Origin: a virus
IMG/VR virus record: IMGVR_UViG_3300045988_145033
Span: 1 to 64,000 of that record
Length of the DNA stretch: 64,000 bases
Strand: one strand, 5' to 3'
Shown one piece after another: positions 4,535-58,900 of this stretch. The notes beneath the pieces were generated by a model that saw nothing but the letters and a program-made list of their open reading frames with translations, was not told where the DNA came from and searched no databases. How positions within the stretch are numbered: the stretch's first letter is position 1; every line of letters begins with the position of its first letter. Both the position numbers and the translations under genes were made by a program.

Positions 4535-4563
4535 GATAATGGTGGCGTAATGCCACCATTAAT
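4535..4563. terminator. bidirectional intrinsic terminator hairpin aatggtggcGTAAtgccaccatt between convergent genes
   Basis: 9-bp GC-containing stem flanked by A/T runs on both sides; near-identical copy at 46484-46510. Confidence 0.7.
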
Positions 4564-10865: not shown

Positions 10866-10901
10866 TAAAAAAAAAAAAATAAAGGCTAGGAAAACCTAGC
10901 C
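10866..10901 (-). terminator. intrinsic terminator ggctaggTTTTcctagcc + 14-nt U-run; identical hairpin at 36591-36623
   Basis: perfect 7-bp stem, long T-run on transcribed strand. Confidence 0.75.
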
Positions 10902-24446: not shown

Positions 24447-26204
24447 TTAATATTCTTCTGATTTATCTTGAGGAACTATTACTGTATTCTCTGTAACTTG
24501 TACAGCGTTGCCTTTATCTAGTTCTTCTGAAGGATTACATTTACCTGAAACTACGTCAATTCCTGTAAGTTTAAAGTTACCTTTGCTGTCTTCATATCCT
24601 CTTGGAGCTAAGTTTAAATCTCCACTTTCTAAACCTTTTTCTATTTCTTTTAGATTATTCGGAATAGTTTTAGTTATAGCTTCCTTTACTTCTTCTGTAG
24701 AATAATCTTTTATTTTGATATTTGCAAGTTTTTCATATTCTTCTACTATAGCTTCGTCTACATTAAAGTCTATAGCATTTATAACTTCGTCTAATTTCTT
24801 AGCAAATGCTTCCCAAGTAACAGACGTTATTTCTAAAAATCCACTAAATATAACTTCTATTCCTCTTAAGAAATCAGGGATGTGTAAAAGTCTATCTATG
24901 AATAATAAAGTTATAATAGAAGCTATGCACATTTTAGTATTAAGTTTAACTTTAGATACTTTCTTTATTTCTTCTTCTCCTTTATCGTTATAAACCTTTT
25001 CTTCCATTTCTACTTTGTCTCCATAGTTACATACAATTCTATCGTGTAGCTCTTTTATAGACGGTACAGCAATTTTAATATATGTATCTAAGTATCCATC
25101 AAATGTATCAGCGATAGGAGTTACTAAATCTATACCGTCCTTTTCAACTGGTACATTTCTATTGAATTTCTTAAATCTTCTTAAGATAGGAGTAAGAGTT
25201 TCTTTTCTCAAATCATTTACTATATACTTTTGAGCTGTGTCTAAAAGTTTAAGTAAAGTATCAGCATCTTTTATAGATTGTATATTTGTATCTACTCCTT
25301 CGACATTGAAGTTTTCTTTTGATAAATCAAGAATTTTTATTTGTCCCTCTAGTATAGCGTGAGCTATATCTACAGTATTTGCAAGGTCATATCCGTTCCA
25401 TATAAATATGAATTGAGATGCAAGACCTTCTATTCCTGATTGTATATCTTCTAAAGCAATAAGTTTTTCTCTTACTAAGTATAGAGCTAAATTAATTAGT
25501 TTACTTATTTCTAGTGTAGTTTTAAAATGTCCATTTTCGTCCATATATATGTCAAATGGTTCATCAGCATACTCTTTATTTAAAAGCTCAAGATGATGCT
25601 GAACGTCAGGAGCATCATATATAGCTTTCTTTTCTTCATCTGTCTTACCTTCAGTTATAGTAAGTCCTGTGAATACTTTAGCTTCTATGATTCTATATAC
25701 GTCAGCCATAGTTAGAGCTACTTCATTTTTATCACATTCAGTTTGATTTCCTAAATAGAACAACACTTCTACAAGTTTCCTCATTTTTGGAATTATTGAA
25801 TTTTCATGTTCTTTTTGTATAGATTTAATAGCTTTATAGTTTGAATATAAAGTCTTAAGTCCAGAGTTATCCATTTCTGCTGGAGTTTCAAACTCAGAAG
25901 TTGCAAGTCTTATTAAATCTACGAATACATAGTTTGCCTTTCTTTTAGCAAGTTTTCTATCGTATTCTAAAGAGCTTTTACTCATAGCAAGAATAGCGTT
26001 AGTGTCTACTATACATAGTTTTCTTTCTACGTCTATTTTTACATCGTATGCTTCTTTTTCTTTTTTCTCTGCTGTAAGTTTATTTATCTTATCATTCGCA
26101 TTATCTATAGTAGTTGCCCACATAAGTGGTCCTATTCCAACCTTCTTTCTCCATTCAATCATTTTTTGTTTATCAAAGTTCTTTGTGTCAATTTTCTTAC
26201 TCAT
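24447..26204 (-). CDS. hypothetical protein (585 aa); N-terminal KLCIVDTNAILA segment faintly PIN/FEN-like
   Basis: long ORF; motif resemblance weak. Confidence 0.6.
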   Translation of the reverse strand: MSKKIDTKNFDKQKMIEWRKKVGIGPLMWATTIDNANDKINKLTAEKKEKEAYDVKIDVERKLCIVDTNAILAMSKSSLEYDRKLAKRKANYVFVDLIRLATSEFETPAEMDNSGLKTLYSNYKAIKSIQKEHENSIIPKMRKLVEVLFYLGNQTECDKNEVALTMADVYRIIEAKVFTGLTITEGKTDEEKKAIYDAPDVQHHLELLNKEYADEPFDIYMDENGHFKTTLEISKLINLALYLVREKLIALEDIQSGIEGLASQFIFIWNGYDLANTVDIAHAILEGQIKILDLSKENFNVEGVDTNIQSIKDADTLLKLLDTAQKYIVNDLRKETLTPILRRFKKFNRNVPVEKDGIDLVTPIADTFDGYLDTYIKIAVPSIKELHDRIVCNYGDKVEMEEKVYNDKGEEEIKKVSKVKLNTKMCIASIITLLFIDRLLHIPDFLRGIEVIFSGFLEITSVTWEAFAKKLDEVINAIDFNVDEAIVEEYEKLANIKIKDYSTEEVKEAITKTIPNNLKEIEKGLESGDLNLAPRGYEDSKGNFKLTGIDVVSGKCNPSEELDKGNAVQVTENTVIVPQDKSEEY

Positions 26205-29660: not shown

Positions 29661-31514
29661 TTATTCTTCTTCTCTAAACTCATCTAAACCATCATCATCA
29701 ATTTCTTCAGCGTGTTCATTATCATAAATTGAGTTTACCCATTCTGTAGCTGATTCTATGAAGTCTTCGCTGTACATATCATTTTCTGGTTTATTTGGAT
29801 TAGTAACTATATTAATTAGTATATCATATATTAGTTGTCCTTCTTCCTCATCGCTTACTGAGTTTTCGTCCATTTTAGACACTTCCCCATTTCCCACAAA
29901 TAGTATATCAGGATTTACAAGAACGAACGCTTCATAGTTATTATCATATGTAGGTTTACCATATTTCTTTATAAATGGTATTAATTTCTTATTTGCTCTA
30001 TCAATATACCATAGATTTTCTATATCTTCTTTTACAATTTCTTCTTCTCCATCAACCTTAGTAAAATCTACTACATTTGGTGCAGTTTCTACTTTCGGTT
30101 CTCCAGCTGATGTATTGAATACTCTCATTATTTCATCACCGAATGGAGTTCCTAACTTTTCTCCAGTTGCTGTATTGTGAGTATACGCTTCTTTAGGGAA
30201 GATTGTATCATTTATTCTTTTCATATCATCAGCTTTCATAGGTTCAGCATACATCTTGCCGTCTTCCCCTTTAACCATTCTAACGCTTCCGCCTCTTAGG
30301 TTATGTGCATCTTTTGCTACATCATTTAGAGCAAACATTGCAGGTATTCCTTCTATTGGTGAAGGTGTATCAGCTGACGCTGTAAGTGTAGCTTTAGAGA
30401 AATCTGGCTTCTTATTTAGAACTCCTTTATCTCCAGCTTTCTTTAAAGTTACTGTAGGCTTTCCATTCTTACCAAATGTACTAACTGGTTTTTCTTCTTT
30501 CTTTTCCTCTTTAAGTTTTGCACCTTCTGGTATAAGAGAAGACTCAGGTGATTTAGCAAATTCAGCTACTTGTCTTTTCATTTCAGTAATAGCTGGGTCT
30601 TCCCCTTCTTTATTCTCAGCTTCTATTTCTTCCTTAGTAGGAGCATTTACTATCTTGACTTCAACTTCCTTACCGTCTATGAAAGTTTTAGTTTTACCAT
30701 CAGTTTGAATAATACCAGCAAGTCTTTCTAATTCTTCATCTGACATAGCATTTACTTCTTCAGCTGTATATTTCTTAGATTTAATTAAAGTCTTTTTCTT
30801 TTCTAGTTCCTCAGCTGATTTCATAGCACGAGCTACTACATCATCTGCAAGAAGTGCACCGTTTTCATCTTCTTCATAATCCCCACCAAGTTTAGCTATA
30901 TCACTTTCGTTTATAGTATATGGTCTTCCATTAACTCTAACGTCTGAGTTCTCGCCTTCTTTTGTAGGGTGGAACATGGAAGCTACTTTTTCTAAATCTG
31001 CTTTTGTATTAGCTTCGTTATTTAGTTCTATTACAACTTTTCTTAATGAGCTTATAAACTCGTCTAATCTCTTTATAAGATTGTATAAATCTACACCCCA
31101 AGTTCTACCACATTCTAATTCGCTCTTTTCATCAAATGTGTCACAAGCTAGCATATAATTTAGTAGGTTTATGCTACCATTATATAGAGAAGTCTCTACT
31201 GAATTTTCATTCATTGTATCCATATCTATTACTTTGTATTCATCATCGCTACAAGTTATCTTAAATTTACCTGTATCTAAAATACCATTAGGTCCTATTA
31301 TTAATAGATTAGATTTTTTAATTCTTTTCTTTTCATCTTCTTGTATCGCCAAGAAACTGCTTCCGTTACTCTTTATAAATCTATCACAAGCTATATCTGT
31401 AATAAAAGATACAACTGTGTGAAGATGCTCATTTATCTTATTTCTTTTCACAAGTTTTTCTTTACTGCTTTCTAAAAAGTTCATATATTCATTTACATTA
31501 TTTATTAAGTTCAT
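29661..31514 (-). CDS. hypothetical protein (about 617 aa; ATG 31514 behind AAAGGAGG RBS)
   Basis: long ORF; no GHKL/Toprim motifs. Confidence 0.6.
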   Translation of the reverse strand: MNLINNVNEYMNFLESSKEKLVKRNKINEHLHTVVSFITDIACDRFIKSNGSSFLAIQEDEKKRIKKSNLLIIGPNGILDTGKFKITCSDDEYKVIDMDTMNENSVETSLYNGSINLLNYMLACDTFDEKSELECGRTWGVDLYNLIKRLDEFISSLRKVVIELNNEANTKADLEKVASMFHPTKEGENSDVRVNGRPYTINESDIAKLGGDYEEDENGALLADDVVARAMKSAEELEKKKTLIKSKKYTAEEVNAMSDEELERLAGIIQTDGKTKTFIDGKEVEVKIVNAPTKEEIEAENKEGEDPAITEMKRQVAEFAKSPESSLIPEGAKLKEEKKEEKPVSTFGKNGKPTVTLKKAGDKGVLNKKPDFSKATLTASADTPSPIEGIPAMFALNDVAKDAHNLRGGSVRMVKGEDGKMYAEPMKADDMKRINDTIFPKEAYTHNTATGEKLGTPFGDEIMRVFNTSAGEPKVETAPNVVDFTKVDGEEEIVKEDIENLWYIDRANKKLIPFIKKYGKPTYDNNYEAFVLVNPDILFVGNGEVSKMDENSVSDEEEGQLIYDILINIVTNPNKPENDMYSEDFIESATEWVNSIYDNEHAEEIDDDGLDEFREEE

Positions 31515-32046
31515 TTTCAAATGCCTCCTTTATAATAGTTACTCCAAAAATATTAAGATTATGTATTCTTTCTTGTAAGTCAAACAATTCTTCTCCGAAC
31601 AATAACCCATTTTTCATACCATTTTTACCTATACTCGTTTTATACACATAATCGCAGAAAGCTATTGCACCTTTATGCTCAAGCTCATCTTGATGTGCTA
31701 AACCACCACTTAAATATAAAACTGTATATAATCCAGTCTTATCGACTTTAATATGTTTATTCATAAATACATCTTTAGGTCCTAGCAGTACAAGAGTTAT
31801 ATTACTATTCTTTTCATCGTCACGAATATTTATAATACTATTTCCACCACTTTCTAAATGCTTCTTAGCTAGTATATTTGTAAGAATATTCTGTATAGCT
31901 CTCATTCTAAATCCTAGAGTATCTTCCTTTACATACTTGTCTCTATTCCTTTCTACATCTTCAACTTTCTCTCTCAAGTTCTCAATAGTGTGTCCTTTTA
32001 TTAAAGATTCACCGTTATTAACTTTTCTTTTTGCTTTTCTACCCAT
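31498..32046 (-). CDS. hypothetical protein (182 aa)
   Basis: ORF; 17-nt overlap with downstream gene. Confidence 0.6.
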   Translation of the reverse strand: MGRKAKRKVNNGESLIKGHTIENLREKVEDVERNRDKYVKEDTLGFRMRAIQNILTNILAKKHLESGGNSIINIRDDEKNSNITLVLLGPKDVFMNKHIKVDKTGLYTVLYLSGGLAHQDELEHKGAIAFCDYVYKTSIGKNGMKNGLLFGEELFDLQERIHNLNIFGVTIIKEAFENELNK

Positions 32047-32118
32047 TTTCTTCCTCCTTAAAATTTTAAATATATTGGGTAGGTTTCCCTACCCAATTCT
32101 TAGTTTATAATATATAAG
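32047..32118 (-). promoter_or_regulatory. promoter-like box TTATATATTATAAAC followed by leader hairpin ttgggtaggGAAAcctacccaa and extended RBS
   Basis: unusual order box-hairpin-RBS (elsewhere hairpin precedes box). Confidence 0.35.
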
Positions 32119-33200: not shown

Positions 33201-33538
33201 AGAATATCACCTCTTATTGATTGTGTATAATATTCTCTTAATATTTCTGAATCGCTTTTACCATCGTCCTTTCTACCTTGCTTAAGTTCTTCTATTAAAT
33301 CTTTATGAATAACTCTTACTATATCATCTTCTATTGTAGGTGGTCTAAATACCACCTCATCTTTCTTGGGTTCTTTATACCCAATATATTCCTTTACAGC
33401 TTCCCCTTGTTCTATCCATTTTTGAGCAAGTTCACCTTCAGGGTGTGTTATGAATTCCATTATATTTTCTTCATTTTCTACCATAAATTTATTTATCAAA
33501 CTCATTACTAATTTATTACTCATTTCTGTTACCTCCAT
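33197..33538 (-). CDS. hypothetical protein (113 aa)
   Basis: ORF. Confidence 0.55.
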   Translation of the reverse strand: MEVTEMSNKLVMSLINKFMVENEENIMEFITHPEGELAQKWIEQGEAVKEYIGYKEPKKDEVVFRPPTIEDDIVRVIHKDLIEELKQGRKDDGKSDSEILREYYTQSIRGDIL

Positions 33539-35444
33539 TTTTCTTATTATCTTCTTCTATTTCCTTTTTGTATTTTTCTTCATAAGCTTTCTTGTATGCT
33601 TCATGGTTACTTCTATCGGCATATAATACATCATAGTTCATATGTGATACAGGTTTAAAGTTATCAGGAGATGTCATAACCTCATCAAAGTATCCATAAC
33701 ATAACTTATTTACTATTCCTGTATTATTAACTATACCCTTTTTGTATCCTACAAATGTATAAGACTCATCATCTCTTAAATCTCTTGACCAATCAGGCTT
33801 ATACATTTCTTTGTCTTTATTAGTCACAAATAGACAGTTCTTTAATACAGTTTCTCCAACTATGTATGGAGATTTTAAAAGCTTATTAAGTTCAGCTACT
33901 GGGTCTTTAAACTTAGCTGGATTTTCAAATATAGCCTTTATTTCATTGTATACTTTAGACTTTCTTTTGTTCTTATATACAACGTGCAAGAAGTTATCAT
34001 CTCTTAGCTCAAGTACACCGTCAGTTTCTACAGGGTACACCATTCCATTTACTTCTACGTCAAATCCGTTATAGCATACTCTTTGACTGTCTTTTCTTGG
34101 GTCATCTATTCTATACTTTTCATTTATCACAATAGTACCATTACAGTATATAATATCTGTGTGCTTAACTTGGACATCGATAGTATTATCGTGTCTAAAT
34201 ATTATATTTTCTATAATAGTTATCATATTGTGCTTAGATGATAGATAGTTTTGACCCTCTGGTGCAATGTACTGCTTTACAAACTGAACTCCTAAATTCA
34301 TATTAGCACCAAGTGGTCCTTTTACATTATCAAAATATGTATGCTCTCCTGTACAGTATCTACATATACCTTCTTTAGAATTACAAGTAAAAGGACTTCT
34401 AACCTTAATAGTTTTCCCAATTAAGTCAGTTCTATCTTTAGTTATAAGCTCGATATCTCTTGGGTGATTACTGTCGTGTATCATATATCTATCATTTAGC
34501 TTATCAAGAACTTCTTGTGATTCTACAAAGTATTCTACATATGCTTTTGAATCACACATATAATCTGGATTAGGATTTAAGTAGTTTGGATTGTTAAGAT
34601 ATGATATAGTCTTTTGAAATGCACCCGGGTCTTTTATCTCAAGTTTAGTTATTATAGTTGCACATCTTGAGATATATGATTCATAATAGAAGCTCTCAGG
34701 TGTTGATATTCCACGAAGCCAAGACTCTTTCTCTATATTAGGTATAACTTCATCTTGGTCGGGACGAGAACCTATCATAAACAGACAGTCAACAAACTGT
34801 GCAAGACGAAGTCCAGTTCCTGCTTTTACAAGAGAACGCAAAGGTTGTATATCTTTTTCTTCGACTACTTTTGATATGTAATCAAGTGTGTGCTTTTTAA
34901 GTTCTTCCACTTCAAATAAACTCATATCGTCTCTTTTAACTGGACCGTTTATAATCCAGTCTTTAAGGGTTTCATCAGCATCACAAAGTTCAAATATATC
35001 AAGCATTGATATATCTATCATCTTTTTATTATCGACTACCCAAGCAAACTGAACAAACGCTTCTTTTATTTCACCTACGATAGATGCTACGTCAAAGAAC
35101 TTCATATTCATTCTATTAAAGCACTCATCTTTCACCATTTCCACATATTCATTTTGACTATCAACATTACCAGAACCCGTGAATATAAAATCCTCAAGTC
35201 TTTGCTCTTGTCCGTCGAGTATATGGTGCTTATCAAGAGTTGTAAATAAAAGCCAGTTCATAATAGCTTTAGCAAACTTCATTTTAGCTATCTTCTCACC
35301 TTTATAAGTTACAGTAACTCTAGTTTCAAGCTTTCCTATATCCCAGTAATCATCAACAAACAACTTTGGTGAAAACTCTGCAATAAGTGGTAAACCTAGT
35401 TCATTTACCTTACTCCAGACATCTGCCATTACTTCATTCTTCAT
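33516..35444 (-). CDS. multisubunit RNA polymerase beta'-like subunit, C-terminal fragment (bridge-helix and trigger-loop region) - split phage RNAP subunit
   Basis: KVRSPFTCNSKEGICRYCTG matches RpoC VRSVVSCDTDFGVCAHCYG; TPESFYYESYISR aligns with bridge-helix TALKTANSGYLTR; no NADFDGD motif, so N-terminal half is elsewhere. Confidence 0.55.
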   Translation of the reverse strand: MKNEVMADVWSKVNELGLPLIAEFSPKLFVDDYWDIGKLETRVTVTYKGEKIAKMKFAKAIMNWLLFTTLDKHHILDGQEQRLEDFIFTGSGNVDSQNEYVEMVKDECFNRMNMKFFDVASIVGEIKEAFVQFAWVVDNKKMIDISMLDIFELCDADETLKDWIINGPVKRDDMSLFEVEELKKHTLDYISKVVEEKDIQPLRSLVKAGTGLRLAQFVDCLFMIGSRPDQDEVIPNIEKESWLRGISTPESFYYESYISRCATIITKLEIKDPGAFQKTISYLNNPNYLNPNPDYMCDSKAYVEYFVESQEVLDKLNDRYMIHDSNHPRDIELITKDRTDLIGKTIKVRSPFTCNSKEGICRYCTGEHTYFDNVKGPLGANMNLGVQFVKQYIAPEGQNYLSSKHNMITIIENIIFRHDNTIDVQVKHTDIIYCNGTIVINEKYRIDDPRKDSQRVCYNGFDVEVNGMVYPVETDGVLELRDDNFLHVVYKNKRKSKVYNEIKAIFENPAKFKDPVAELNKLLKSPYIVGETVLKNCLFVTNKDKEMYKPDWSRDLRDDESYTFVGYKKGIVNNTGIVNKLCYGYFDEVMTSPDNFKPVSHMNYDVLYADRSNHEAYKKAYEEKYKKEIEEDNKKNGGNRNE

Positions 35445-35819: not shown

Positions 35820-36479
35820 TTATTCTTCTTCAATATCATCTTCATCATCACAACCAAAGAAATCATCAAAGAAGTATTGAGGCTCTATATATTCATACCC
35901 TCTTTTGATTTCTCTAGTCAGTCTATGACTATCTTTGATTGTGAACCAGTACACATTGCCCACATCAAATACTTGTCCATTTGAAAGGACTATAAGTTCG
36001 TCCCATTCTCCAGAACCATATCTGATTTTCTTATGTCCATTAGGCATGTAGAAATAATGTTCAGTACCATCACTGAAAGTGTACTTTTCCCACTTCTTTG
36101 AATTGTGTGGGTTGTACAAACCTCTTATAGTTTTCCAGATGTACTTACTATTAATAATACAATAGTCATCTGGATGATTTGTATATTTCAACTTTTCTGC
36201 ACCACTTAATATCTTGCCATAGTCTCCAATCCATAGATACGGACTTAATACTGTGATTGCAGAAATATTGAATTTTTCACATTCCTTTATTATTAAAGAA
36301 ACGTACTTCATATTTCTGCTGTGATATTTCTTTAGAGAAGCTCTGTACTTTCTATCTCTGTCTGATATAACTTCTCCAAAGTAACTTACATCGAATCCAG
36401 CAATCTTTGCGATTTTTCTGAATTCTTTAACTAATTTTTCATCTTCCCATTTTTCTTTTAAGTTTGCAAATTTGTTCAT
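35820..36479 (-). CDS. hypothetical protein (219 aa)
   Basis: ORF with family-B leader. Confidence 0.6.
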   Translation of the reverse strand: MNKFANLKEKWEDEKLVKEFRKIAKIAGFDVSYFGEVISDRDRKYRASLKKYHSRNMKYVSLIIKECEKFNISAITVLSPYLWIGDYGKILSGAEKLKYTNHPDDYCIINSKYIWKTIRGLYNPHNSKKWEKYTFSDGTEHYFYMPNGHKKIRYGSGEWDELIVLSNGQVFDVGNVYWFTIKDSHRLTREIKRGYEYIEPQYFFDDFFGCDDEDDIEEE

Positions 36480-36590: not shown

Positions 36591-36623
36591 TAAAAAAAAA
36601 ATAAAGGCTAGGAAAACCTAGCC
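36591..36623 (-). terminator. intrinsic terminator ggctaggTTTTcctagcc + U-run (copy 2)
   Basis: identical to 10884-10901. Confidence 0.75.
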
Positions 36624-36630
36624 AATATCT

Positions 36631-37197
36631 TTACTTATTTGGTATTAGATTGCTGTGTCTCTTTTTGTGTCTAAGAGACTTATAAAGAATAAGAAAGCTT
36701 GATAACTTAACTTTAACCTTCTTATTCTTTTTAAAGCAAATTTTAGCACTATTTAAGCCTTGAGGGATTTTTGTAAGAATATACCCCTTTCCAGCTTTAT
36801 ATTCTAAAGTTTCCCAGTCAGGAACAGCCTTTTCAACTTTGTTCCCGATTTTAAAAGTTTCTGTGAAGTTAGTAGCAACTCCACGTTTCAAATCTACAGA
36901 ATAGTAACCACCGTGTTGCCATAGTGATACTATGTCGGCAGTTTTTAATTCTTTCTCAAAATATTTTATATCACGAATGTACCCGTCCCAAACCATTTGA
37001 AATGGTCCTTCGTAGTAGATACAATCGTAGTCTTGATAACAAGTTTCAGGCTTGCCTCTGTATATACAAGACTTTTTGCTGTGTCTTATACTTCTTTTAC
37101 CGAAGTATAAATCGAATGTAGGCTCAACCCTTGTAGCCTCATCGAACATGATTTTCCCTAACTTTCTCATTTTTGCAACCAATTTAATATTTCTCAT
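36631..37197 (-). CDS. hypothetical protein (188 aa)
   Basis: ORF with family-B leader. Confidence 0.6.
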   Translation of the reverse strand: MRNIKLVAKMRKLGKIMFDEATRVEPTFDLYFGKRSIRHSKKSCIYRGKPETCYQDYDCIYYEGPFQMVWDGYIRDIKYFEKELKTADIVSLWQHGGYYSVDLKRGVATNFTETFKIGNKVEKAVPDWETLEYKAGKGYILTKIPQGLNSAKICFKKNKKVKVKLSSFLILYKSLRHKKRHSNLIPNK

Positions 37198-39284: not shown

Positions 39285-39316
39285 GAAGAAAAGAATAATG
39301 GTGGCTAAGCCACCAT
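39285..39316 (-). terminator. terminator hairpin atggtggcTAAgccaccat
   Basis: 8-bp stem downstream of 124-aa gene. Confidence 0.55.
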
Positions 39317-42445: not shown

Positions 42446-43324
42446 ATGAAAGGTGCAATGAAAGAAAACTTTTTTGGGGATATAATGGAATTTATAAATG
42501 GTTCGAAAGAACCATTTATAAATCTTTCAGATTACAATAAAAAGGATAAACTATTCTTTTTTGATATGTCTTTATATCTTTTTATATCAAATAAACTTAA
42601 TTCATCATTTAAAGAAAAGGGACAAGATAAGATTGAGTTTACAAAAAATAGTCCTGAGAAAGATTGGTTTAAATCAAATAATATAAATTCTTGGATAGAG
42701 TTTGTATTCTTTATGAAAGAATGGAGAGAAAAGAATAATAATACTAAGAGTGTAATAGATATGGAAGAAGTATCTCATATAGGTTTATTTAAAGGATACT
42801 ATGATGAGTTCTTCTTGCTTTACAAGAAGTTCCCTAAGATACTATGGGTTACAGCTCTTAGTAATCATAAGATAGAAAATATAGACGGAACTCAATACTA
42901 CTTCATAGATGAACTAGAAGAAATTACAGTTCTTATAGCTATGAATGCTTGGGTGAGACACTTAATGGATAAACACGATAGATACTTTGCTGAGCTTATA
43001 AATACAGAATCTGAGGGACAAGAAAGATTTATAGAATACATAAAAGACTATGTTAAAAATGGATTACCTGAAAATCACGATAGTATTTTAGATTATATAG
43101 GTTACGCTATCTTTATGTCGGGAGTTCAATATTCTAATAAGTTCTTAAGTGAGAATAAGGATTTAATAGGAATGAAACTAGATAAGTATTCAAATAAGGC
43201 TATATCTAAAAGGCTTATAAACGTATTTAAAGAATATATGTGTAATATGCCTAAAGAAGATAACCCTACAAGACCTCGTGAGCTTATAGATAAAATAAAA
43301 GAAATAGAGCATAATGTAAAGTAA
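42446..43324 (+). CDS. hypothetical protein (292 aa)
   Basis: ORF with AAGGAGG RBS. Confidence 0.6.
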   Translation: MKGAMKENFFGDIMEFINGSKEPFINLSDYNKKDKLFFFDMSLYLFISNKLNSSFKEKGQDKIEFTKNSPEKDWFKSNNINSWIEFVFFMKEWREKNNNTKSVIDMEEVSHIGLFKGYYDEFFLLYKKFPKILWVTALSNHKIENIDGTQYYFIDELEEITVLIAMNAWVRHLMDKHDRYFAELINTESEGQERFIEYIKDYVKNGLPENHDSILDYIGYAIFMSGVQYSNKFLSENKDLIGMKLDKYSNKAISKRLINVFKEYMCNMPKEDNPTRPRELIDKIKEIEHNVK

Positions 43325-43331
43325 AGAGATA

Positions 43332-43349
43332 TGGTAGGCTTTCGCCTAC
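43332..43349. repeat. hairpin ggtaggcTTTCgcctacc, copy 1 of 21-nt exact repeat atggtaggctttcgcctacca (copy 2 at 43631-43651)
   Basis: exact duplicate 300 bp apart, no U-run. Confidence 0.7.
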
Positions 43350-43380
43350 CATAAAACTGATATTTATTGCGATAAATAAA

Positions 43381-43392
43381 GGACGCCTGAAA
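43381..43392. repeat. GC-rich motif GGACGCCTRAAA, copy 1 of 3 (others 43703-43714, 43825-43836)
   Basis: 12-mer thrice in 455 bp of a 29% GC genome. Confidence 0.6.
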
Positions 43393-43448
43393 TATATCCG
43401 AAAGGATTTCTATAGCAAATTAAAAGCAGTACCAAATCTTTGTTGTTA

Positions 43449-43482
43449 GATTATGGCTGGGCTCCATGCCCCAACCATAATC
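43449..43482. ncRNA. stable composite hairpin gattatgg-ct-gggcTCCATgccc-caa-ccataatc (possible structured RNA or protein-binding site)
   Basis: 8-bp outer and 4-bp inner perfect stems. Confidence 0.3.
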
Positions 43483-43961
43483 CGTCCTTACATGATTAAT
43501 GTTATGAAAGTAATATCTCTGAAAAAATAGAATTTTCATGAATATTTCAAAAAATGCAACGGGACACCCAAAATAATGAATAATATTCAAATTAGTTACA
43601 CCATAGTGTTCTGTAAAAATGCAAAGACTTATGGTAGGCTTTCGCCTACCACTTGTCACCTCTTAATTTGTATAAAGATTAATCATACAATAGCTTACAA
43701 TAGGACGCCTAAAATGTATATTACAATCAATACACTTTTGTGTTACGTATTTAATTAAAAATGTGAGTGTAGTTGATGTATCTATAACGATGAACTTAAC
43801 TATCAATATCATTAGTTTGGTAAAGGACGCCTAAAAGCAGTAACCAAAAATATACTTTGCGTAGCGATACTACGCCTATTAGCCATATCTATTTACTGAA
43901 AGGAGAAAATACAATACACACTCACATTCAAGAAAGTGTTGTGTAATTTGTCAATATTTGG

Positions 43962-43973
43962 AACAATTTTTTG
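43962..43973 (+). promoter_or_regulatory. AACA-N6-TG late-type promoter motif (AACAatttttTG)
   Basis: 20 nt upstream of ATG 43993. Confidence 0.4.
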
Positions 43974-43992
43974 ATAAATGGAGGTGAACTTA

Positions 43993-44748
43993 ATGGTTAC
44001 TAATGAAGAATATGAACATAAAGCACATTATAATACTATGGATTTTTATACAAAAGCTGATGCGGCTCATATGGGAGACCATGTAGAGCTTGTAAAGCAA
44101 AGAGCTCTTGATATGTATAATTGGTTAAAGGAAAAGAAAGGAATAGAAGCTGACCTCAAATGTGTAATACTTGCGGCTTCATTTCATGATACAGGTTCTG
44201 CTATACAAAGAGAAGACCATAATGTAATATCTTATAACTTATTTAAAGCTGGTAAATTAACTGACGGTATTGAGCTTACAGATGATGAAAAGATTATTAT
44301 AGCAAATGCTATACTTCAGCATTCGTCTCATTTTAAAGGAAACTATTATTCTATAGAAGCTGAGATAGTAGCATCAGCTGATAGAGATGAACCTGACATA
44401 TATGCGATACTTTCTCGTAGTGTAGACTATGCTAGAAAACATAATCCAGATGATATAATAGATAGTGTAGCTGAATATAATATCAAAAGATATGCTAGTT
44501 TTCCGAGCTCTGACTATAGAGTTCCTGATTGGCACTTCGAGTATTGGAATGATATAATGCCGAATTGTTTTACATATATTAATAAATTTTTCCAAAACGA
44601 AGATATAGTTAAAAAGGTTGTGAATTCTATAGCAGACGATAATACTGAAAGATATGTACGAGAGATGATAGATAGCTATATACACAGTGATACTAAACCA
44701 AATTTATTCTCCGAAAGTGTATTCAGGAGATTTAAAGGAGAGATGTAA
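43993..44748 (+). CDS. HD-domain metal-dependent phosphohydrolase (252 aa)
   Basis: H..HD..H..D pattern (AAHMGDH, ASFHDTGS, LQHSSH, ASADRDE); start 43993 behind GGAGGTG. Confidence 0.55.
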   Translation: MVTNEEYEHKAHYNTMDFYTKADAAHMGDHVELVKQRALDMYNWLKEKKGIEADLKCVILAASFHDTGSAIQREDHNVISYNLFKAGKLTDGIELTDDEKIIIANAILQHSSHFKGNYYSIEAEIVASADRDEPDIYAILSRSVDYARKHNPDDIIDSVAEYNIKRYASFPSSDYRVPDWHFEYWNDIMPNCFTYINKFFQNEDIVKKVVNSIADDNTERYVREMIDSYIHSDTKPNLFSESVFRRFKGEM

Positions 44749-45314: not shown

Positions 45315-46481
45315 ATGATTAATGATAGCAGAATAATAAGACCTTTTATAACTGATGCTGATGATATGTACTCATTTGATGATTTAGACCAAATGAAATC
45401 AGAGATACAATCTATACTAGGTTTTGATTTAAAAAAGATAATAAGAGTTAATAGATTTTCAAATGCTGATACTAAAGGTAGAATACATTGGAGATACTTA
45501 AGTGATACTCAAGATGATACTTCTGTAGAAGTTAGAGTGAATCTATCAAATGATATAGTACACCCAAATAAAGTTAAAAAATATGCAAATGTTGTAGTAG
45601 GTATACCTTTTATGAATAACGACGGTACAGCACTTCAATATTGGAATGGTTCAGCTTATGAAACTGTGCCTAAGAAACTACAAATAGGAAGACAGTTTGT
45701 AGCATCAGGAGATAACATAGAATGGACTAAAATACCAGTTCTTTTAAAGACAGAAGATGAATTAAAAGCACTCGATAATATAGTATCAGGAGATATATTT
45801 ATAATTCCTAATATGCCAACAGCAACGACAGCTGGTTCTATATCTATGTATTTTGCATCTGTAAAAGAATCAACAGAATTTCCATATAATACAGAGATAG
45901 AAACAGCTACGACTGGTATACACGTTTACAGAATATCATCGTTGGATTTTAGCTACATATCAGACGGTGAAGAAAATAATACTACTGGAAAGCTTACAAT
46001 AGAAGATACAGCAGTTGCAAGCGGTAAAGCTTTAACTTATGTACAAGATAATGTAGTTAATAAGAAAGCTATAATATCTGTAGTATCACAAGCATCGGCT
46101 GATACCGTACATTCATCTGAAGTTACTAAAATGATAGATGATAAGGCAACTCTTGCTTTAAAGAATAGAAGAATAATTTATGATACTGGCAATGGTAAAC
46201 CTAAGAGCTACATATATACAGAAAGAACTTTATACAAAAGACAGCTACAAGCTGGTACTAATACGTTCGTATTTAAAATAGAAGATAGTGCAGAATCGGT
46301 TGCTATACTTGCAGATATATGCTCTTGGACTATAAATAGAGATGTAAGTGCTACATCTAAATATGAATTTACTTTTGATACTACTAAGAAAGAATTAAAG
46401 CTTACTTATGTAAAAGATGCAAGTGATACAAATACTCATATAAAGGTAAATCTATTCCATGGATATAAAGTAGTTGAATAA
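45315..46481 (+). CDS. hypothetical (structural?) protein (388 aa)
   Basis: ORF with AAAGGAGG RBS. Confidence 0.6.
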   Translation: MINDSRIIRPFITDADDMYSFDDLDQMKSEIQSILGFDLKKIIRVNRFSNADTKGRIHWRYLSDTQDDTSVEVRVNLSNDIVHPNKVKKYANVVVGIPFMNNDGTALQYWNGSAYETVPKKLQIGRQFVASGDNIEWTKIPVLLKTEDELKALDNIVSGDIFIIPNMPTATTAGSISMYFASVKESTEFPYNTEIETATTGIHVYRISSLDFSYISDGEENNTTGKLTIEDTAVASGKALTYVQDNVVNKKAIISVVSQASADTVHSSEVTKMIDDKATLALKNRRIIYDTGNGKPKSYIYTERTLYKRQLQAGTNTFVFKIEDSAESVAILADICSWTINRDVSATSKYEFTFDTTKKELKLTYVKDASDTNTHIKVNLFHGYKVVE

Positions 46482-46483
46482 AG

Positions 46484-46510
46484 ATAATGGTGGCACAACG
46501 CCACCATTAT
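46484..46510. terminator. bidirectional terminator ataatggtggcACAAcgccaccattat (second copy of 4538-4560 element)
   Basis: between convergent genes. Confidence 0.7.
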
Positions 46511-46512
46511 CT

Positions 46513-48426
46513 TTATAATTGTCCGTTTTTAAAGCTTTCTACATCGTATTGGTCCGGCATAGTTATTTGGTTAGTACCAAGTAGTGCTATAACTGCTCCA
46601 GTTGCCGCATCAAGTATTTTCTTTTCAGCGTCAATAGAGTTAAGTACCTTAAATGTAGTTATGTCTTTTAAAGTGCAAGTTTCACCTTTATATAACTTAT
46701 CAAGTAACACTCTTAAATCAAATGATTCTCTTATAATAAGTTTAGGGTCTTTATCTTCCATTCTATCAAAGTATTCGTTAAGTTGAGACGTTTCGTGGTT
46801 TTCAGATTCATACACTGCTTCGGTTAGATTAAATCCTACACTTTCAAATAGTATTTCTACTAAGTGAATATAAGCCATATTGATTCTATTAGCTATAGCT
46901 CTTTTTATCTTATCCATTGAATTTCCTGTCATTTTATATTTTAGATATACTTCTAAATAAGTTTTAGGAATTATAGTAGACATACCACCACAAACTCCTG
47001 AAGCTACAGCTGATTTTATAGCTCCTACCGCATCATCAACAGCTCCTAGTTTTCTATCTACTTCCCAAGAGTTATCAGCTCCAACTACTATTTCAGCATA
47101 CTTTCCATTTATTCTTCTTATTCTTGCTTTTATAGCATCAGCTCTTCCTTTATCATCTTTTACAAGAGCTAATTCTTCTTCAAGCTCTTTTACGTGTCCC
47201 TCGGCTCTTACTTTATCAAAACCAAATAAAGTAACTTGAGTTTTACTCATAATAGCATCTACTGGATTTATTGCTCCAACTTTTAATAGATTTTCTACAT
47301 ATGAAGAAACTGTGAAATCTAACTCTTCTTCTGTAAATTCTTCTATATTATCAGGGAATATATCTCTAAGTTTCTTATCAAGTTCATATGCTTGTGGTTG
47401 TCCTATCAAATATTCAAAGTCTTTATGTTCTTCTTGCGATAGTATTGTTCCAGTATAAGCATACTCGAGTATATAGATAGGTAAGAAGTCTACATTATAT
47501 TTAGTCTTATACCAATTTCTAACTTGTAGTATTTCTCTTTCAACTACATCTTTATATTGAAGATTATAAGTTATAAATACAACTGGAGACATATTTTCAA
47601 TACCAACACCGTGACCATTCATAAACTCTATCATATTATAAGCAACTTTAGCATATAGTTTCATAAGAGCTCTTATACTATCAGCCGATGCAATATTATT
47701 ATCAACTATAACTGGTATTATCTTCTTTCTTAAAACTGCTTTAGGAAATCCTAAAGGTCCTTGTTGTATAGTATATCCTTCTTTTACAGAATAGTTAGTT
47801 TTAGCTTGAGTTCCGTCTGCTTTATAAGTTACAGAGATATTAGATAAGTCTTCTCCGTCTCTTGTAATCTCTTTTAAAGCTCCTATTAAAGCATCTTTAA
47901 GTTCTGTATCATTATTTACAGAAGTTTCTATAATACCTATTAAATCACTTAAATCAGCTTGAGCAAACACTTTATGGTCGTCCATTTCTTTTTTGAAAGA
48001 TTCCACTACATCTTTAATTAAATCATTAAAGAATTGTGCTGGTAAGTTACTTTTATCTCTAAGCTCAGCTAAAGACTTATATAAATCAGCTATAAGTATT
48101 GTAGTAGTTGTAGTACCGTCTCCAGCTGTTGATAGAACTCCTAGCATAGATGATAATACAAGTTGCTTTAAAGCTTGTGCTACAGGGTGAAAGTATTTAG
48201 TTTTAGATAAAAGAGTATATCCGTCTTTTGTAATAGATGCAAGCACTGCACCATTATCTCCTGATTTTTGTATCATAAGAGTTGAAGCACCTATTGGACC
48301 ATAACTCTTTTTAACTACATCTGCCATATCATCAAGTATATGAGATATGTGCTCACTATTCATCACTGTGTGATTTGTCTCCAAAAGTATTTTCTTCGGT
48401 TGTTCCACTTTCTCTGTCATGTTCAT
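46513..48426 (-). CDS. GroEL-like chaperonin (phage-encoded, 637 aa)
   Basis: AGDGTTTTTILIADL (GroEL GDGTTTATVLA), DDAVGAIKSAVASGVCGGMS (GroEL DALxATRAAVEEGxVxGGG); RBS AAGGAGGA. Confidence 0.75.
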   Translation of the reverse strand: MNMTEKVEQPKKILLETNHTVMNSEHISHILDDMADVVKKSYGPIGASTLMIQKSGDNGAVLASITKDGYTLLSKTKYFHPVAQALKQLVLSSMLGVLSTAGDGTTTTTILIADLYKSLAELRDKSNLPAQFFNDLIKDVVESFKKEMDDHKVFAQADLSDLIGIIETSVNNDTELKDALIGALKEITRDGEDLSNISVTYKADGTQAKTNYSVKEGYTIQQGPLGFPKAVLRKKIIPVIVDNNIASADSIRALMKLYAKVAYNMIEFMNGHGVGIENMSPVVFITYNLQYKDVVEREILQVRNWYKTKYNVDFLPIYILEYAYTGTILSQEEHKDFEYLIGQPQAYELDKKLRDIFPDNIEEFTEEELDFTVSSYVENLLKVGAINPVDAIMSKTQVTLFGFDKVRAEGHVKELEEELALVKDDKGRADAIKARIRRINGKYAEIVVGADNSWEVDRKLGAVDDAVGAIKSAVASGVCGGMSTIIPKTYLEVYLKYKMTGNSMDKIKRAIANRINMAYIHLVEILFESVGFNLTEAVYESENHETSQLNEYFDRMEDKDPKLIIRESFDLRVLLDKLYKGETCTLKDITTFKVLNSIDAEKKILDAATGAVIALLGTNQITMPDQYDVESFKNGQL

Positions 48427-50822: not shown

Positions 50823-50833
50823 TTATTTCACCT

Positions 50834-50845
50834 CAAAAGGCTGTT
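50834..50845 (-). promoter_or_regulatory. AACA-N6-TG motif (AACAgcctttTG) abutting helicase RBS
   Basis: minus strand; would give near-leaderless transcript. Confidence 0.25.
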
Positions 50846-50879
50846 TTTCACAATTTTAAAACAAAAAAAAAAGAGGAAC

Positions 50880-51068
50880 TTAATCCCCTTTGTGTTTGTT
50901 GAAGTAGTACCATGCGTCTGCCCACATAGTAAGCAGAGCACCACTCCATCTTAGACTAGCTAAGACTTTGATTCCGGCGATTGCTGTCGCCAAAGTTATA
51001 ATACCGAAATATATCACAGTCATTATAGTGGCTGCGATAAGCATAGCAATGATTTGTAGATTTTTCAT
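50880..51068 (-). CDS. small membrane protein, 2 TM (62 aa) with own family-C promoter/leader
   Basis: ORF + leader 51075-51160. Confidence 0.5.
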   Translation of the reverse strand: MKNLQIIAMLIAATIMTVIYFGIITLATAIAGIKVLASLRWSGALLTMWADAWYYFNKHKGD

Positions 51069-51074
51069 ATTGTA

Positions 51075-51160
51075 CCTCCTTAAGGTATTAAATTAAGACT
51101 GTAAGCTCTTAACCCTTGTTAAGTTTACTCTTGTCTTCTACTATTATTATATATAATTGA
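51075..51160 (-). promoter_or_regulatory. early-type box + family C leader (copy 2, hairpin CUUAACAAGGGUUAAG)
   Basis: see 38120-38204. Confidence 0.55.
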
Positions 51161-51202
51161 AATGAAAAATTAAGGAACGTAGATAAAAAAAATAGAATAT
51201 CT

Positions 51203-51463
51203 TTACGGGCAGAAGATATCTATTATATCGTCCAAGCAGTCAAGAATAACCGCAGCTATCTTTCCGATGAACGATTTCTTTTGAAGTTTCTTTATCACCC
51301 TGTCCTTTCTTGCGTCCATTTTGTCTATATAATTGAAGATAAACCTAGCCAATGGACTCCATCTAAGTCTCTTCTTTAAAACCTTGTACGCGTAACTCTT
51401 AACAATGTCGCCCGCAGCATATGTCAGAGCTTTACGTACGAATAAACCGAATAGATACCACAT
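51203..51463 (-). CDS. hypothetical protein (86 aa)
   Basis: ORF with box 51497-51514. Confidence 0.5.
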   Translation of the reverse strand: MWYLFGLFVRKALTYAAGDIVKSYAYKVLKKRLRWSPLARFIFNYIDKMDARKDRVIKKLQKKSFIGKIAAVILDCLDDIIDIFCP

Positions 51464-51517
51464 GATATCACCTCCTTTTAACTCGGCTATTCCTATTATT
51501 ATTATATATAATTGAAA

Positions 51518-51557
51518 GAAAAAATTGCGAATTTTATATACTCCCCGAAGGGAGTAT
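51518..51557 (-). terminator. intrinsic terminator tatactcccTTCGgggagtata + U-rich tract
   Basis: 9-bp stem. Confidence 0.6.
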
Positions 51558-51562
51558 AATAT

Positions 51563-55945: not shown

Positions 55946-58900
55946 TTATATAGATTTTCCTTTACAAATTCTATCAATAAGTTTATAAAAGTCATCATTA
56001 GAATTCATACCAGAACTTCCCATTGTAACTGGAGTAGGGTTACCATTGACCGTAGTCATTACATTGTATCCATTTAGTGCAAGATTTGTCTTCTTACCAG
56101 TTACAGCTTCTATGAATGTAGCAAATAGCTTATTCATATTACGTAACTCTCCTAAAATAGCTTCAAGTAATTTAGTTTCACCATTTTGTTCCATACCTTG
56201 AGAACGATTTATGAATTTTACCAAGTTTTCATTTATTTCATTTAAAATACCAGTCTGAGTTTGACTATGTTTTGCTGATGCTTGTATACCAGCTTTTATC
56301 TTATCTGTAGATAAAGCAATAGAGTTTGATGATTTAGCAACACCATCATCACTACCTTTTCCAGATAAGTTCATAGTCTTTGTATATTGCTCTGCCGCAT
56401 TATATGTCATATCACGAGATACACGTCCATATCCTGCAAGAACTGGCTCAACCACTTTTTCTTTAAATGTACCATAAGCTCCTTTTATGATATCTACCAT
56501 AGAAGCAGTTTTCTTTGCAAGTTTTACAGATGCTTTTTCTTTGTATATCAAAATTGCTTTTGCCATACGAAGACGTTTGTCATTTACTGAAACTTGCTCA
56601 GATGAGTTCTTTTCCGGGTCATTTATATAAATCTTACCATTTACCATCTCTTTACCTATTATGAAATGTGGTGCACCAGTTGATGATACTGTAAGAAGTA
56701 TAGGAGAACGTCCGGCACGTAGTTCACTTACAAATCTTGCAAGTACCTTATCATTAAATATAACAGAACGTATTTTATGCTCAGCTAGTATATTTACGAA
56801 ATACTTCATAGGCGTACCAGCTTTAGGTGATGATTTCATAGCAACAGCTTTACGTACTAAATCTTCCATATTGTATCTTATCTTTAACTTATCAAGAAGC
56901 ATAGCCATAACAGCAGGACCACAACCAGCTTCTCTAAATCTAAGTCCTCCACCCATTCCAAGTTTATTCCACTTTCCTGAGTTTTGTGATACGTGTTTCA
57001 TAGGTCCAAAACCTTCGTTACCAGCTTTTAATCCTTCTTGTTGCTTTGCTGACGTTTTAACTTTTTGAGTTACGCTATATGGGTCAAAGGCATCAACAAC
57101 ATATCCGTCAAACCCCATAAATTGTGCTGCTTCTTTTGTAGACGGATATTTAGATGCTGAGAAATTAGCAACTTCTCTTCCTCTTACGTGTCCATCTCCA
57201 TCTTTGTCCATTCCGTGATTTGCTTTATATTCCGCTGAACCACGCGAATAAACTGGCTTATCTGGATGATATCCTAAAGACTTAGGATAATGTAAGTAAG
57301 AATATAAGTTATATAGGTTAGGAGGATATTTACCCAAGCCTTTTATCCATCTAGGTCCAACTCTTTTTAATTGCTCAAGTGGCGTGAAACTTCCCGGAAG
57401 TTCATTAGGTGCAAACCCCCAACCTTTTCTGTAACTCTTCATTACTTGGAAAAGTCCAGATGCTCCACCGTTACTATTATATGCGTCAGGTTGCCAAGTT
57501 GACTCAGAATAAGATACAGCTAACATATTTCTCGCAACATCTACTCCCCATTGAGAAACAGCATAATCCCACATTTCTTTCATTTGCTTCCTATATTGTG
57601 GGTTCTTAGCTTTTTGCATAAGCCCCATATTCTTAGTGACTCCAGTTATAACATTTCCACCACTAAAATCTCCTGAACTTGAATCTTCTGCTACAACATT
57701 GCCGTTTTCATCTAGGTTAAATCCTAAAGATGTTGCTAAATTTTTCACAGTAGCACCTATATCGAAGTTTTTGATAAATTCATATCTATCTCCAAATTTA
57801 GAAGCATTGTCATCATCTATCATAGCTTGCATATCAGATTTAGCTTTTGTAGCTTCTTGAGTTGTTGTATCAACTTTTGTAAGCTTACCGTCTGGAGTTA
57901 CAGGTCCAAATCCTTGATAAGCTCCATATCCGTCACTATCAGTTTTATATTTATCATACAACTTACTATTCTTTTTAGCTATGTCTTCTTTTTCTTTTTT
58001 ATCTTTCTCTTCTTGTTGCTTTTTAAGTTTTTCTTGATTTTCTTTTCTCTTCTTTGCATCTTCGTCACGTTTCTTCCAATAATCTGGGTCTTTTAAATCA
58101 TAATCGCTATCAGCATCTGGGTCATATCCATAATCAGTCTTATCAACATCACCATTTGCTTCTTCTTCACGCTTAGCTTTATATTCTTCATATTTGCTCT
58201 TACCCCATTCTTTTAATTCTTCTTCTTCTCTCTTCTTAGCTTCTTCTTTATCACTTTCTTCTTTATTAAAAGCTTCTAGTGCTTCTTTTGATTTCCATTC
58301 GGATTCATCAACACCAGATACCCATTCGTAGAACCACACAACCATATCATCTATAGGGATAGCAGCAAGCCACCATACTTTAGATGATGCTAGTCCCCAT
58401 AATAGTTCCACAAAACCTGATGCAAATTTCATACCAGTAGTTATGTAATCAGAACCTACGTTGAAATAATCTCTTGCGTGTCTCCAACCATGAATAAAAT
58501 CATATATTGCAAATATTCCGTCTACTATAGCTCCTACTGGTGGTAATGCGTAAGATGCAGAACGAGTAACATTTTTAGCTGTCTTCTTAGCGGCTTTCTT
58601 TGCAGCCTTTTTACTCATCTTTTTAGCAACAACTTCTATTCCGCCTTTCTTTAAAAGTTTTTCAGCAAATGCTTTAGTAAGCTTATAATTAAGAAGTTTT
58701 CTTAACATCTTTTCTATAAACTCTTTAAACCATTTACCAATAGCGGTTTCTGTTATTTGCTTTACTCCACGTTCAGCCAGATTTTGAGCACCTTTTCTAA
58801 ACGCTTCGTTTTTAAATAAACCATTTTTAGCTATTCTAAGTCCAGTTTGTTGAATATTATGAGTTACAGTTTCTCCAGTTCTTCCAGTAGAGTTTATAAA

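Follow-up and report, generated by a model that had tools for sequence, protein, structure and literature searches.

A 668-bp island at positions 43325 to 43992 of a viral DNA stretch (the window: positions 1 to 64,000 of IMG/VR record IMGVR_UViG_3300045988_145033) probably holds four small non-coding RNA genes, arranged in tandem on the minus strand and each preceded by a promoter of its own. The island lies between a gene for a 292-aa hypothetical protein and an HD superfamily hydrolase gene (a 251-aa open reading frame (ORF), start codon at 43993). A DNA polymerase B (PolB) gene lies 1.3 kb upstream, a synteny kept across all relatives, and all of these flanking genes run on the plus strand. 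Positions 43000–44300 match the Fusobacterium nucleatum phages JD-Fnp1, 4, 6 and 7 (174–180 kb) at 86–89% identity, which identifies the window, by sequence, as part of a JD-Fnp-type F. nucleatum phage of ~180 kb. In the annotated JD-Fnp GenBank records the gap between the 292-aa and HD genes carries no annotation, and the JD-Fnp isolation paper makes no mention of tRNA, termini, packaging, RNA polymerase, intergenic regions or promoters. An initial annotation of the window had called the island gene-free and had offered a replication origin with iterons, a packaging region or a cluster of small RNAs as candidates. The evidence supports the last of these and further places the predicted RNAs on the minus strand, in antisense orientation to the neighbouring genes. 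"Gene-free" stands insofar as there is no conserved ORF, but the island is not empty and is best explained by four small RNA genes. The ORFs of 35–79 aa that it contains have no Shine-Dalgarno (SD) sequence, as the same annotation had said in denying them a credible ribosome binding site, and none keeps its frame or length in close relatives.

We collected relatives through the flanking 292-aa protein and used the HD protein to find extra ones; the latter search brought no further clade, only members of the two below and loci that lack an island. Besides the window clade, the relatives comprise a sister clade of ~175-kb contigs known only from metagenomes (37–41% identity in the 292-aa protein), for which a search of deposited phage records gave no match, and the only intermediate found, a truncated contig (L011) with 52% identity in that protein. 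All relatives keep a gap at the same place, 650–1000 bp long.

The candidate promoters emerged when we listed the upstream regions of all window genes, which brought out two recurrent motifs. The first, AACA-N6-T[AG], matches the late promoters of the Bacillus jumbo phage AR9, AACA-(6N)-T(A/G), in which the last base is the transcription start (PMC5312081). It is present in 24 copies on both strands of the window and, as in AR9 (PMC5312081, PMC9209446), it stands just ahead of gene starts with its last base as the predicted +1: 11 of the 20 copies outside the array lie 12–46 nt ahead of an SD sequence and start codon that open an ORF of 124 aa or more, PolB and HD among them. The remaining four, all AACA-N6-T-G, fall on the island's minus strand and are followed by no ORF (AACA starting at 43940, 43744, 43610 and 43444), where 0.125 would be expected (Poisson P = 9e-6); they form the densest cluster in the window. 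On its plus strand the island has only the AACA-N6-T-R box of the HD gene at 43962 and no other, and here the late-class promoter motif that had been placed just downstream of the island proved real. Each of the seven window-clade islands that were scanned has four minus-strand matches; sister-clade islands have three, four or five. The boxes are colinear, and every island of both clades has only these boxes on its minus strand. Box P-A (Table 1) keeps AACA-N6-T-G in the seven scanned window-clade islands and, in a wider alignment, reads T-A at its last two positions in one relative (L038).

The second motif, ATATATTAT-N6-R, is of the AR9 early type (AAATATATATTAT-(6N)-G; PMC5312081). It occurs 11 times in the window against 3.6 expected, and is not present in the island. 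A candidate polymerase subunit is also encoded in the window: the 641-aa ORF 33516–35444 (−) matches the jumbo-phage RNA polymerase (RNAP) beta family phrog_3015 (5e-27), and its sole PDB match (E = 1e-22) is chain D of 7S00/7S01/7UM0/7UM1, which are structures of the AR9 non-virion RNAP (nvRNAP; PMC9209446). It has no Pfam match. This is the single nvRNAP subunit identified in the window; the promoter-specificity subunit was not searched for. Since early and late AR9-type consensus motifs both precede window genes, the sequence suggests that Fusobacterium phages of ~180 kb, too, are transcribed by two polymerases in the manner of AR9 and phiKZ, a pattern for which we found no report in the literature searched. 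Such a programme would supply AACA-N6-TR as a rule for finding promoters, and further non-coding genes, in these phages.

With these boxes as starting points, the island divides into four units (Table 1), in each of which 110–175 nt separate the box from a closing helix. Each AACA-N6-T-G box would be a promoter for the phage's multisubunit RNAP of the AR9 non-virion ("late") class, with its G as +1, and each unit would end in a GC-rich helix acting as terminator and/or 3' protection. RNA-D and RNA-B would end in hairpins 1 and 2, the two copies of a 21-nt repeat, RNA-C in GGACGG followed by a 13-bp hairpin, and RNA-A in a panhandle with a U-run. The spacers between units measure ~10 nt, and with the next promoter that far on, the 668 bp would be fully used. 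In the RNA-A panhandle the 11-nt arms are 100% complementary, the helix begins 1 nt after the predicted +1, and UUU follows it.

Table 1. Predicted elements of the island, listed in the direction of minus-strand transcription (SD, Shine-Dalgarno; MFE, minimum free energy)
Feature	Positions	Strand	Details
HD-gene promoter box, AACA-N6-T-G	43962–43973	+	Predicted +1 G43973; SD and start codon 20 nt on; kept in all relatives; back-to-back with P-A
P-A box, AACACTTTCTTG	43929–43940	−	Predicted +1 G43929
Predicted RNA-A, ~175 nt	43755–43929	−	MFE −41.1 kcal/mol, z −2.75
RNA-A panhandle	43928–43918 with 43770–43760		5' end AAUGUGAGUGU pairs with ACACUCACAUU, then U-run
RNA-A internal hairpin	43875–43859	−	GCGUAG-UAUCG-CUACGC
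RNA-A mini-hairpin	43832–43824	−	AGG-CGU-CCU
P-B box, AACACAAAAGTG	43733–43744	−	Predicted +1 G43733; kept in all window-clade sequences
Predicted RNA-B, ~115 nt	43620–43733	−	MFE −30.3 kcal/mol, z −3.7
RNA-B mini-hairpin	43710–43702	−	AGG-CGU-CCU; 27 nt from +1
RNA-B end	43651–43631		Hairpin 2 (copy 2 of 21-nt repeat) and tail AAGUCUUUGC
P-C box, AACACTATGGTG	43599–43610	−	Predicted +1 G43599; kept in window clade
Predicted RNA-C, ~155 nt	43446–43599	−	MFE −39.0 kcal/mol, z −3.65
RNA-C mini-hairpin	43569–43561	−	GGG-UGU-CCC; 34 nt from +1
RNA-C end	43487–43482, 43482–43449		GGACGG leading into 13-bp hairpin
P-D box, AACAAAGATTTG	43433–43444	−	Predicted +1 G43433; kept in window clade
Predicted RNA-D, ~115 nt	43320–43433	−	
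RNA-D hairpin	43407–43396	−	AUCC-UUUC-GGAU
RNA-D mini-hairpin	43388–43380	−	AGG-CGU-CCU
RNA-D hairpin	43377–43362	−	AUUUAU-CGCA-AUAAAU
RNA-D end	43353–43330		Hairpin 1 (copy 1 of 21-nt repeat) and U-rich tail over the stop codon of the 292-aa gene

Every unit also contains a short shared hairpin. The 12-mer GGACGCCTRAAA, listed three times in the initial annotation, is indeed found at 43381, 43703 and 43825 and nowhere else in the 64 kb (0.2 expected; three copies in 0 of 100 shuffles). Its core RGGYGTCCY adds a fourth copy at 43561–43569; all four lie on the minus strand and within the island (0.58 expected per window), one per predicted RNA, 27–101 nt inside the predicted transcripts. What reads as GGACGCC on the plus strand is the image of a minus-strand mini-hairpin, (A/G)GG-YGU-CC(U/C). 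Over 23 distinct instances its three inner pairs are 100% paired and alternate between GC/AU/GU and GC/CG/UA, the G and U of the loop are invariant, and G-U pairs are tolerated on one strand only. The sister clade carries this same element, in the form GUGCG-UGU-CGCAU, twice per island.

The other repeats and hairpins noted earlier also held up. There are exactly two copies of the 21-mer ATGGTAGGCTTTCGCCTACCA, at 43331 and 43631, where 0 would be expected even when three mismatches are allowed. Because hairpins of the same kind mark many other gene ends in the window (ATGGTGGC..GCCACCAT at 4536–4561, 39297–39316 and 46477–46516; ATTGGGTAGG..CCTACCCAAT at 32073; GGGTAGG..CCTACCC at 32073–32097), the repeat is best read, from its sequence, as an ordinary terminator or 3'-end hairpin of the phage. 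Its description as lacking a U-run is correct for the plus strand of the window phage but not for the minus strand, where a terminator scan called hairpin 1 with 10 pairs and the tail TCTCTTTACT. The hairpin GCGTAG-CGATA-CTACGC was found again at 43859–43875, as was the one at 43449–43482, whose 13-nt arms are 92% complementary. Over three clades this 13-bp hairpin is 94% paired, with 5 of its 13 pairs changed on both sides, and the GGACGG directly before it is invariant in 12 of 12 sequences.

Some variation among these gene-end hairpins is recorded here in its own right. A further one, GGCTAGG-AAAA-CCTAGCC, occurs twice (10883–10901 and 36605–36623). The stems are homogenised within one genome and differ between clades (GCTGGGG..CCCCAGC in the sister clade), which points to gene conversion or a sequence-specific factor. 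In JD-Fnp7 and JD-Fnp4 (L002 and L003) the hairpin 2 tetraloop, homologous to window 43640–43643, reads GAAA in place of TTTC (plus strand), a small inversion that leaves the stem unchanged, and in L013 it reads GAGA on the minus strand.

The choice of strand bears on a different explanation of the same structures. On the plus strand, hairpin 1 would terminate the 292-aa gene, and the rest of the island would be a structured leader or regulator (riboswitch or attenuator) of the HD mRNA. Hairpin 1 starts 6 nt past the stop codon, hairpin 2 has T5 after it on the plus strand in most relatives, the flanking genes have that orientation, and the whole island folds better than shuffles on the plus strand (z = −6.3; minus strand, z = −5.0). 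Yet the HD gene has its own AACA-N6-TG box, the sole plus-strand box in the island, with a +1 only 20 nt before the start codon, and no Rfam cis-regulatory family matches. Moreover, the variable pairs of the long hairpin can form as G-U in minus-strand sequence, whereas a plus-strand reading turns them into A-C mismatches, and in seven relatives (L001, L002, L003, L013, L028, L029 and L039) one pair of the RNA-A helix is likewise U-G when read from the minus strand but C-A from the plus. The sister-clade RNAs described below are unambiguously minus-strand. A plus-strand leader is thus very unlikely. For the window clade, what favours the minus strand is the G-U pairing (long hairpin, mini-hairpins and RNA-A helix) together with the four boxes, direct evidence that is thinner than that for the sister clade.

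The island as a whole appears to be maintained by selection. Its identity to five relatives (85.5–94.4%) is higher in all five comparisons than that at the third codon positions of both flanking genes (76–88.5%), and since it exceeds this measure the island is, judged by sequence, under constraint. The four boxes, the four mini-hairpins and every end hairpin are retained in 11–13 window-clade genomes. Comparison of RNA-D with its counterpart in L011, read by eye, shows changes that keep pairing: AGG/CCU to GGG/CCC in the mini-hairpin, AUUUAU/AUAAAU to UAUAUU/AAUAUA in the following hairpin, and GGC/GCC to GGG/CCC in the terminator. We weighed these results against the possibility that the island is a decaying, functionless remnant of a tRNA or tRNA-like cluster whose cloverleaf RNAs the window clade has lost. 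Such a remnant would account for the lack of a tRNA or cloverleaf in the window (ARAGORN finds 0 tRNA genes in the 64 kb) and for the location of segments C and D, which sit roughly at the sites of the sister-clade RNA-c and RNA-d. The conservation above synonymous sites, the retention of every box and hairpin, and the compensatory changes relative to L011 speak against decay and make it highly improbable.

The best-supported RNAs at this locus are those of the sister clade. There, ARAGORN reports a "tRNA-???" on the minus strand, which corresponds to an RNA of ~95 nt that we call RNA-c (L009:6000–6094 (−); also L015:2276–2373, L017:4362–4458, L025:4141–4237, L031:4141–4237, L042:1688–1782 and L049:2477–2574). 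Its cloverleaf is paired in 100% of cells, and both partners are changed in 21 of 28 pairs, a level reached by 0 of 500 shuffles; in every variant the acceptor stem begins with the predicted +1. A second RNA, RNA-d (152–162 nt; L009:5775–5934 (−), L017:4147–4306 (−), L025:3917–4078 (−) and L042:1477–1632 (−)), has a tRNA-like topology with a 15–16-bp acceptor-type helix, a 13–14-bp arm and 17 compensatory pairs; the first base of its terminal helix is likewise the predicted +1. Its T-arm is GGUUCGACUCC and its 3' end, CCACCGGU, is conserved; sister-clade T-arms in general read GGTTCRANTCC on the minus strand. Given this cloverleaf-type covariation of RNA-c and RNA-d, the sister-clade locus certainly encodes minus-strand structured RNAs. 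A paralogue of RNA-d, RNA-e, was seen in the L017 group only, downstream of a fifth AACA box. Neither RNA-c nor the sister loci match Rfam even at E = 10; weak hits, such as a mascRNA-like one on L009 at 23 bits, reflect only the tRNA-like T-arm and were set aside.

The sister-clade RNAs share one further property. In place of an anticodon loop RNA-c has an 8-nt loop, R-UUGCAA-A, R-UCAUGA-A or R-UCGCGA-A, forms that are related by paired double changes. A self-complementary hexamer with flanking purines is found in all 10 variants, and the loop of the long variable arm is GUCGAC in 9 of the 10. The tip of the RNA-d arm is always palindromic (GUAC, GUAUAC, AAGCUU, UAAGCUUA or AUGAUCAU). From these sequences we suspect kissing-loop self-association or dimerisation; alternatively, the self-complementarity may reflect palindrome formation at the DNA level. 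The dimerization initiation site (DIS) of human immunodeficiency virus 1 forms a kissing loop with a 9-nt loop in which a self-complementary 6-nt sequence is flanked by unpaired purines. The sister-clade loops resemble it in the self-complementary 6 nt, the flanking purines and the double changes that preserve self-complementarity, and differ in that the loop has 8 nt and takes the anticodon position of a tRNA-shaped RNA. The window clade has no such loops.

Several points weigh against four RNA genes in the window itself. We infer the existence, starts, ends and timing of the four RNAs from the sequence. Window-clade sequences are too similar to each other to show real covariation: RNAalifold gave −119.7 kcal/mol for the minus and −108.2 kcal/mol for the plus strand, with 1–2 compensatory pairs on either, so that as a means of choosing the strand it was indecisive and favoured the minus strand slightly. 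A covariance model of RNA-c found its best window match at 13.9 bits (E = 0.12), outside the island; as the model finds no counterpart, the window clade would have a different cargo, and homology of its RNAs to the sister array rests on position, boxes, mini-hairpin and GGACGG with its hairpin. Two boxes deviate in single relatives (in L041 P-A has TACA in place of AACA, and in L011 P-D has AACA with the N6 spacing absent). A simple terminator scan passes only hairpin 1 and does not call hairpin 2 (tail AAGTCTTTGC) or the long hairpin (tail TAACAAC). Promoter recognition in AR9 involves template-strand deoxyuridine (PMC9209446). Lastly, no partner for the mini-hairpin was identified, and the neighbouring proteins show no informative domain beyond HD.

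The main rival to tandem RNA genes is a transcription-activated replication origin, in which tandem promoters beside PolB would open the DNA or supply primer RNA, and the hairpins and GGACGCC motifs would be origin structure or initiator sites. Phage promoters act as replication origins in the T7 primary origin and in T4 oriF and oriG, and the island shares with these tandem phage-polymerase promoters, AT-rich DNA and a place near replication genes. Its location downstream of PolB is kept in all relatives, it has four same-strand promoters within 520 bp and four same-orientation copies of a short motif, and single-stranded DNA of minus sequence could form the hairpins equally, so the G-U argument cannot separate DNA from RNA. 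What distinguishes the island from the T7 and T4 origins is a conserved structured segment with a hairpin after each promoter, the corresponding sister-clade segments being RNAs by covariation and selected for elaborate folds (cloverleaves with T-loops) that an origin does not need. Nor do the repeats behave as iterons. Iteron-type origins combine several direct repeats of ~17–22 bp with an AT-rich unwinding element and a neighbouring initiator gene. In contrast, the repeats here are of 9–12 nt, and their 9-nt core varies between copies in one genome with pairing kept, covarying as a hairpin; the 21-nt repeat is a hairpin type common at gene ends, and no replication initiator gene was recognised among the island's neighbours. 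The cumulative GC-skew check proposed in the initial annotation showed a turn at ~39–40 kb, at the switch in gene orientation, and none at the island. The iteron origin suggested there is not supported, and an origin of the transcription-activated kind seems to us unlikely.

A packaging (pac/cos) region or genome terminus was the other DNA-level candidate. Five contigs end 0–9 kb from the locus, which exceeds the expectation for random breakpoints (L022, L028 and L032, ~175–179 kb; L037, 176 kb; and L035, 114 kb; the flanking-protein match in L037 covers the first 88 residues only, at 34% identity). These ends are scattered over ~13 kb, from ~4.5 kb upstream to 9 kb downstream, and mark no single site. 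The JD-Fnp GenBank records put the locus mid-genome, three of the four being circular assemblies, and no terminase was recognised beside the island. The anatomy of promoter, RNA and hairpin explains every element without a packaging role, and we regard a terminus here as extremely improbable. Two of the five contigs end inside the homologue of the 292-aa gene.

What four such RNAs would do can be approached through their shared parts. They would accumulate with the AR9-type late class, to which the single tRNA gene of AR9 also belongs (PMC5312081; PMC9209446). The present array would differ from AR9 in its Fusobacterium host, the genome size of ~180 kb and the use of four such promoters before predicted tandem non-tRNA small RNAs; no comparable tandem array was found in the AR9 papers or the wider literature searched. 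A single partner, protein or RNA, might dock at the mini-hairpin of all four, making the RNAs a late ribonucleoprotein or decoy set, an idea we put forward tentatively. Should the mini-hairpin recruit a protein of host or phage, the array may represent a novel means by which phages manipulate RNA metabolism or defence. It is more doubtful whether the array is a cassette for RNAs that assemble with each other or with a common partner, expressed from individual late promoters in Fusobacterium phages with an AR9-type polymerase. In the sister clade the palindromic loops (UUGCAA, UCAUGA, UCGCGA, GUCGAC and others) would then form kissing-loop dimers or chains, and in the window clade the cargo would have been swapped for four RNAs with a G-YGU-C triloop docking element. 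Were this true, such assemblies or decoys would form a class of phage RNA not described before. For the phages concerned, F. nucleatum phages that are therapeutic candidates, a gap left unannotated in every GenBank record would gain four predicted RNA genes with their ends, and the sister clade adds a family of tRNA-shaped RNAs with self-complementary loops.

Known phage RNAs offer partial parallels. In T4 the stable RNAs species 1 and 2 (rnaC/rnaD) sit in the tRNA region, and like them and phage tRNA clusters the array would be a compact cluster of small structured RNAs in a large lytic phage. Some of these RNAs are tRNA-shaped and non-decoding, and the sister-clade RNA-c and RNA-d resemble tRNA in their acceptor, D, anticodon, variable and T arms. 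The window RNAs, in contrast, have no cloverleaf and no sequence or Rfam similarity to them, and share a YGU triloop hairpin; each would also have its own promoter at the mature 5' end instead of being released by RNase P from a polycistronic precursor. ROOL and GOLLD are large phage-associated non-coding RNAs that form homo-oligomeric cages. With these and the phi29 packaging RNA (pRNA) the array has in common that structured RNAs are borne by a phage, and loop-loop self-association is a possible parallel for the sister RNAs. It differs in consisting of several short separate predicted transcripts instead of one RNA of 600–800 nt, and in having no phi29-type packaging context.

Searches for known families gave little. 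The covariance-model scan that the initial annotation had recommended (Rfam 15, gathering score) yielded no match across the 64 kb, and at E values up to 10 only chance-level hits appeared, such as PK-HAV (25 bits against 50) and Ref1C (22 against 90). No stretch of the island is complementary to other parts of the window beyond the chance level (best 14 nt, E = 0.13).

A number of other readings of the motifs were tried and dropped. A plus-strand T-loop at 43449–43482 (loop TTCAATC in JD-Fnp4) has a loop that is not conserved in the clade. Pairing of GGACG with the CGUCC of the GGCGUCC motifs would apply to the window clade only, the sister GUGCG-UGU-CGCAU being unable to pair with GGACGG. 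A promoter box AAAATT-N5-AACA was too rare in the window, and AACA-N6-TR was adopted instead. The hairpin promoters of phage N4 have a 5-bp stem and a 3-nt loop with a central G, as do the mini-hairpins; N4-type DNA hairpin promoters were rejected with no N4-like virion RNAP found and with the mini-hairpins sitting inside the predicted transcripts. The candidate for such a polymerase, the 2,666-aa ORF 55946–63949 (−), instead carries an SLT lytic-transglycosylase match (residues ~2129–2174) and a C39 peptidase domain (~2338–2448), and by these domains is probably a virion or ejection protein. A plus-strand sponge of the CsrA type would have its GGA in the stem and not in the loop, on the disfavoured strand. 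For mimicry of a host repeat or an RNA anti-CRISPR there was no support: the 24 matches of GGTAGGCGAAAGCCTACC in 185,579 species genomes are scattered, only one contig has more than one of them, and none is in Fusobacterium.

Elsewhere in the window, examples of AACA-N6-TR lie at 15839 (+), 26929 (−), 39738 (−), 39745 (+), 45274 (+) and 50845 (−), and of ATATATTAT-N6-R at 11689, 12894, 14906, 32115, 36559, 37276 and 39283 (−). Five large ORFs (16505–18682, 18696–20015, 20029–21774, 24447–26204 and 29661–31520) matched nothing in any library tried and could be further polymerase subunits. Three minus-strand genes (10910–11608, 35820–36479 and 36631–37197) share a near-identical leader of ~70 nt after an early-type promoter, ..TATATATTATAT..AAGGCAATCCAAYGGGGAGAAGCCAWAATTTAATTT.., which is, on sequence grounds, a repeated 5' untranslated element. 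In a rough map that counted ORFs of 110 aa or more, the island is the second-largest gap in the window; the one that exceeds it, 50823–51562 (~740 bp), carries a GC hairpin at 51536–51558 and the AACA-N6-TG box at 50845 (−).

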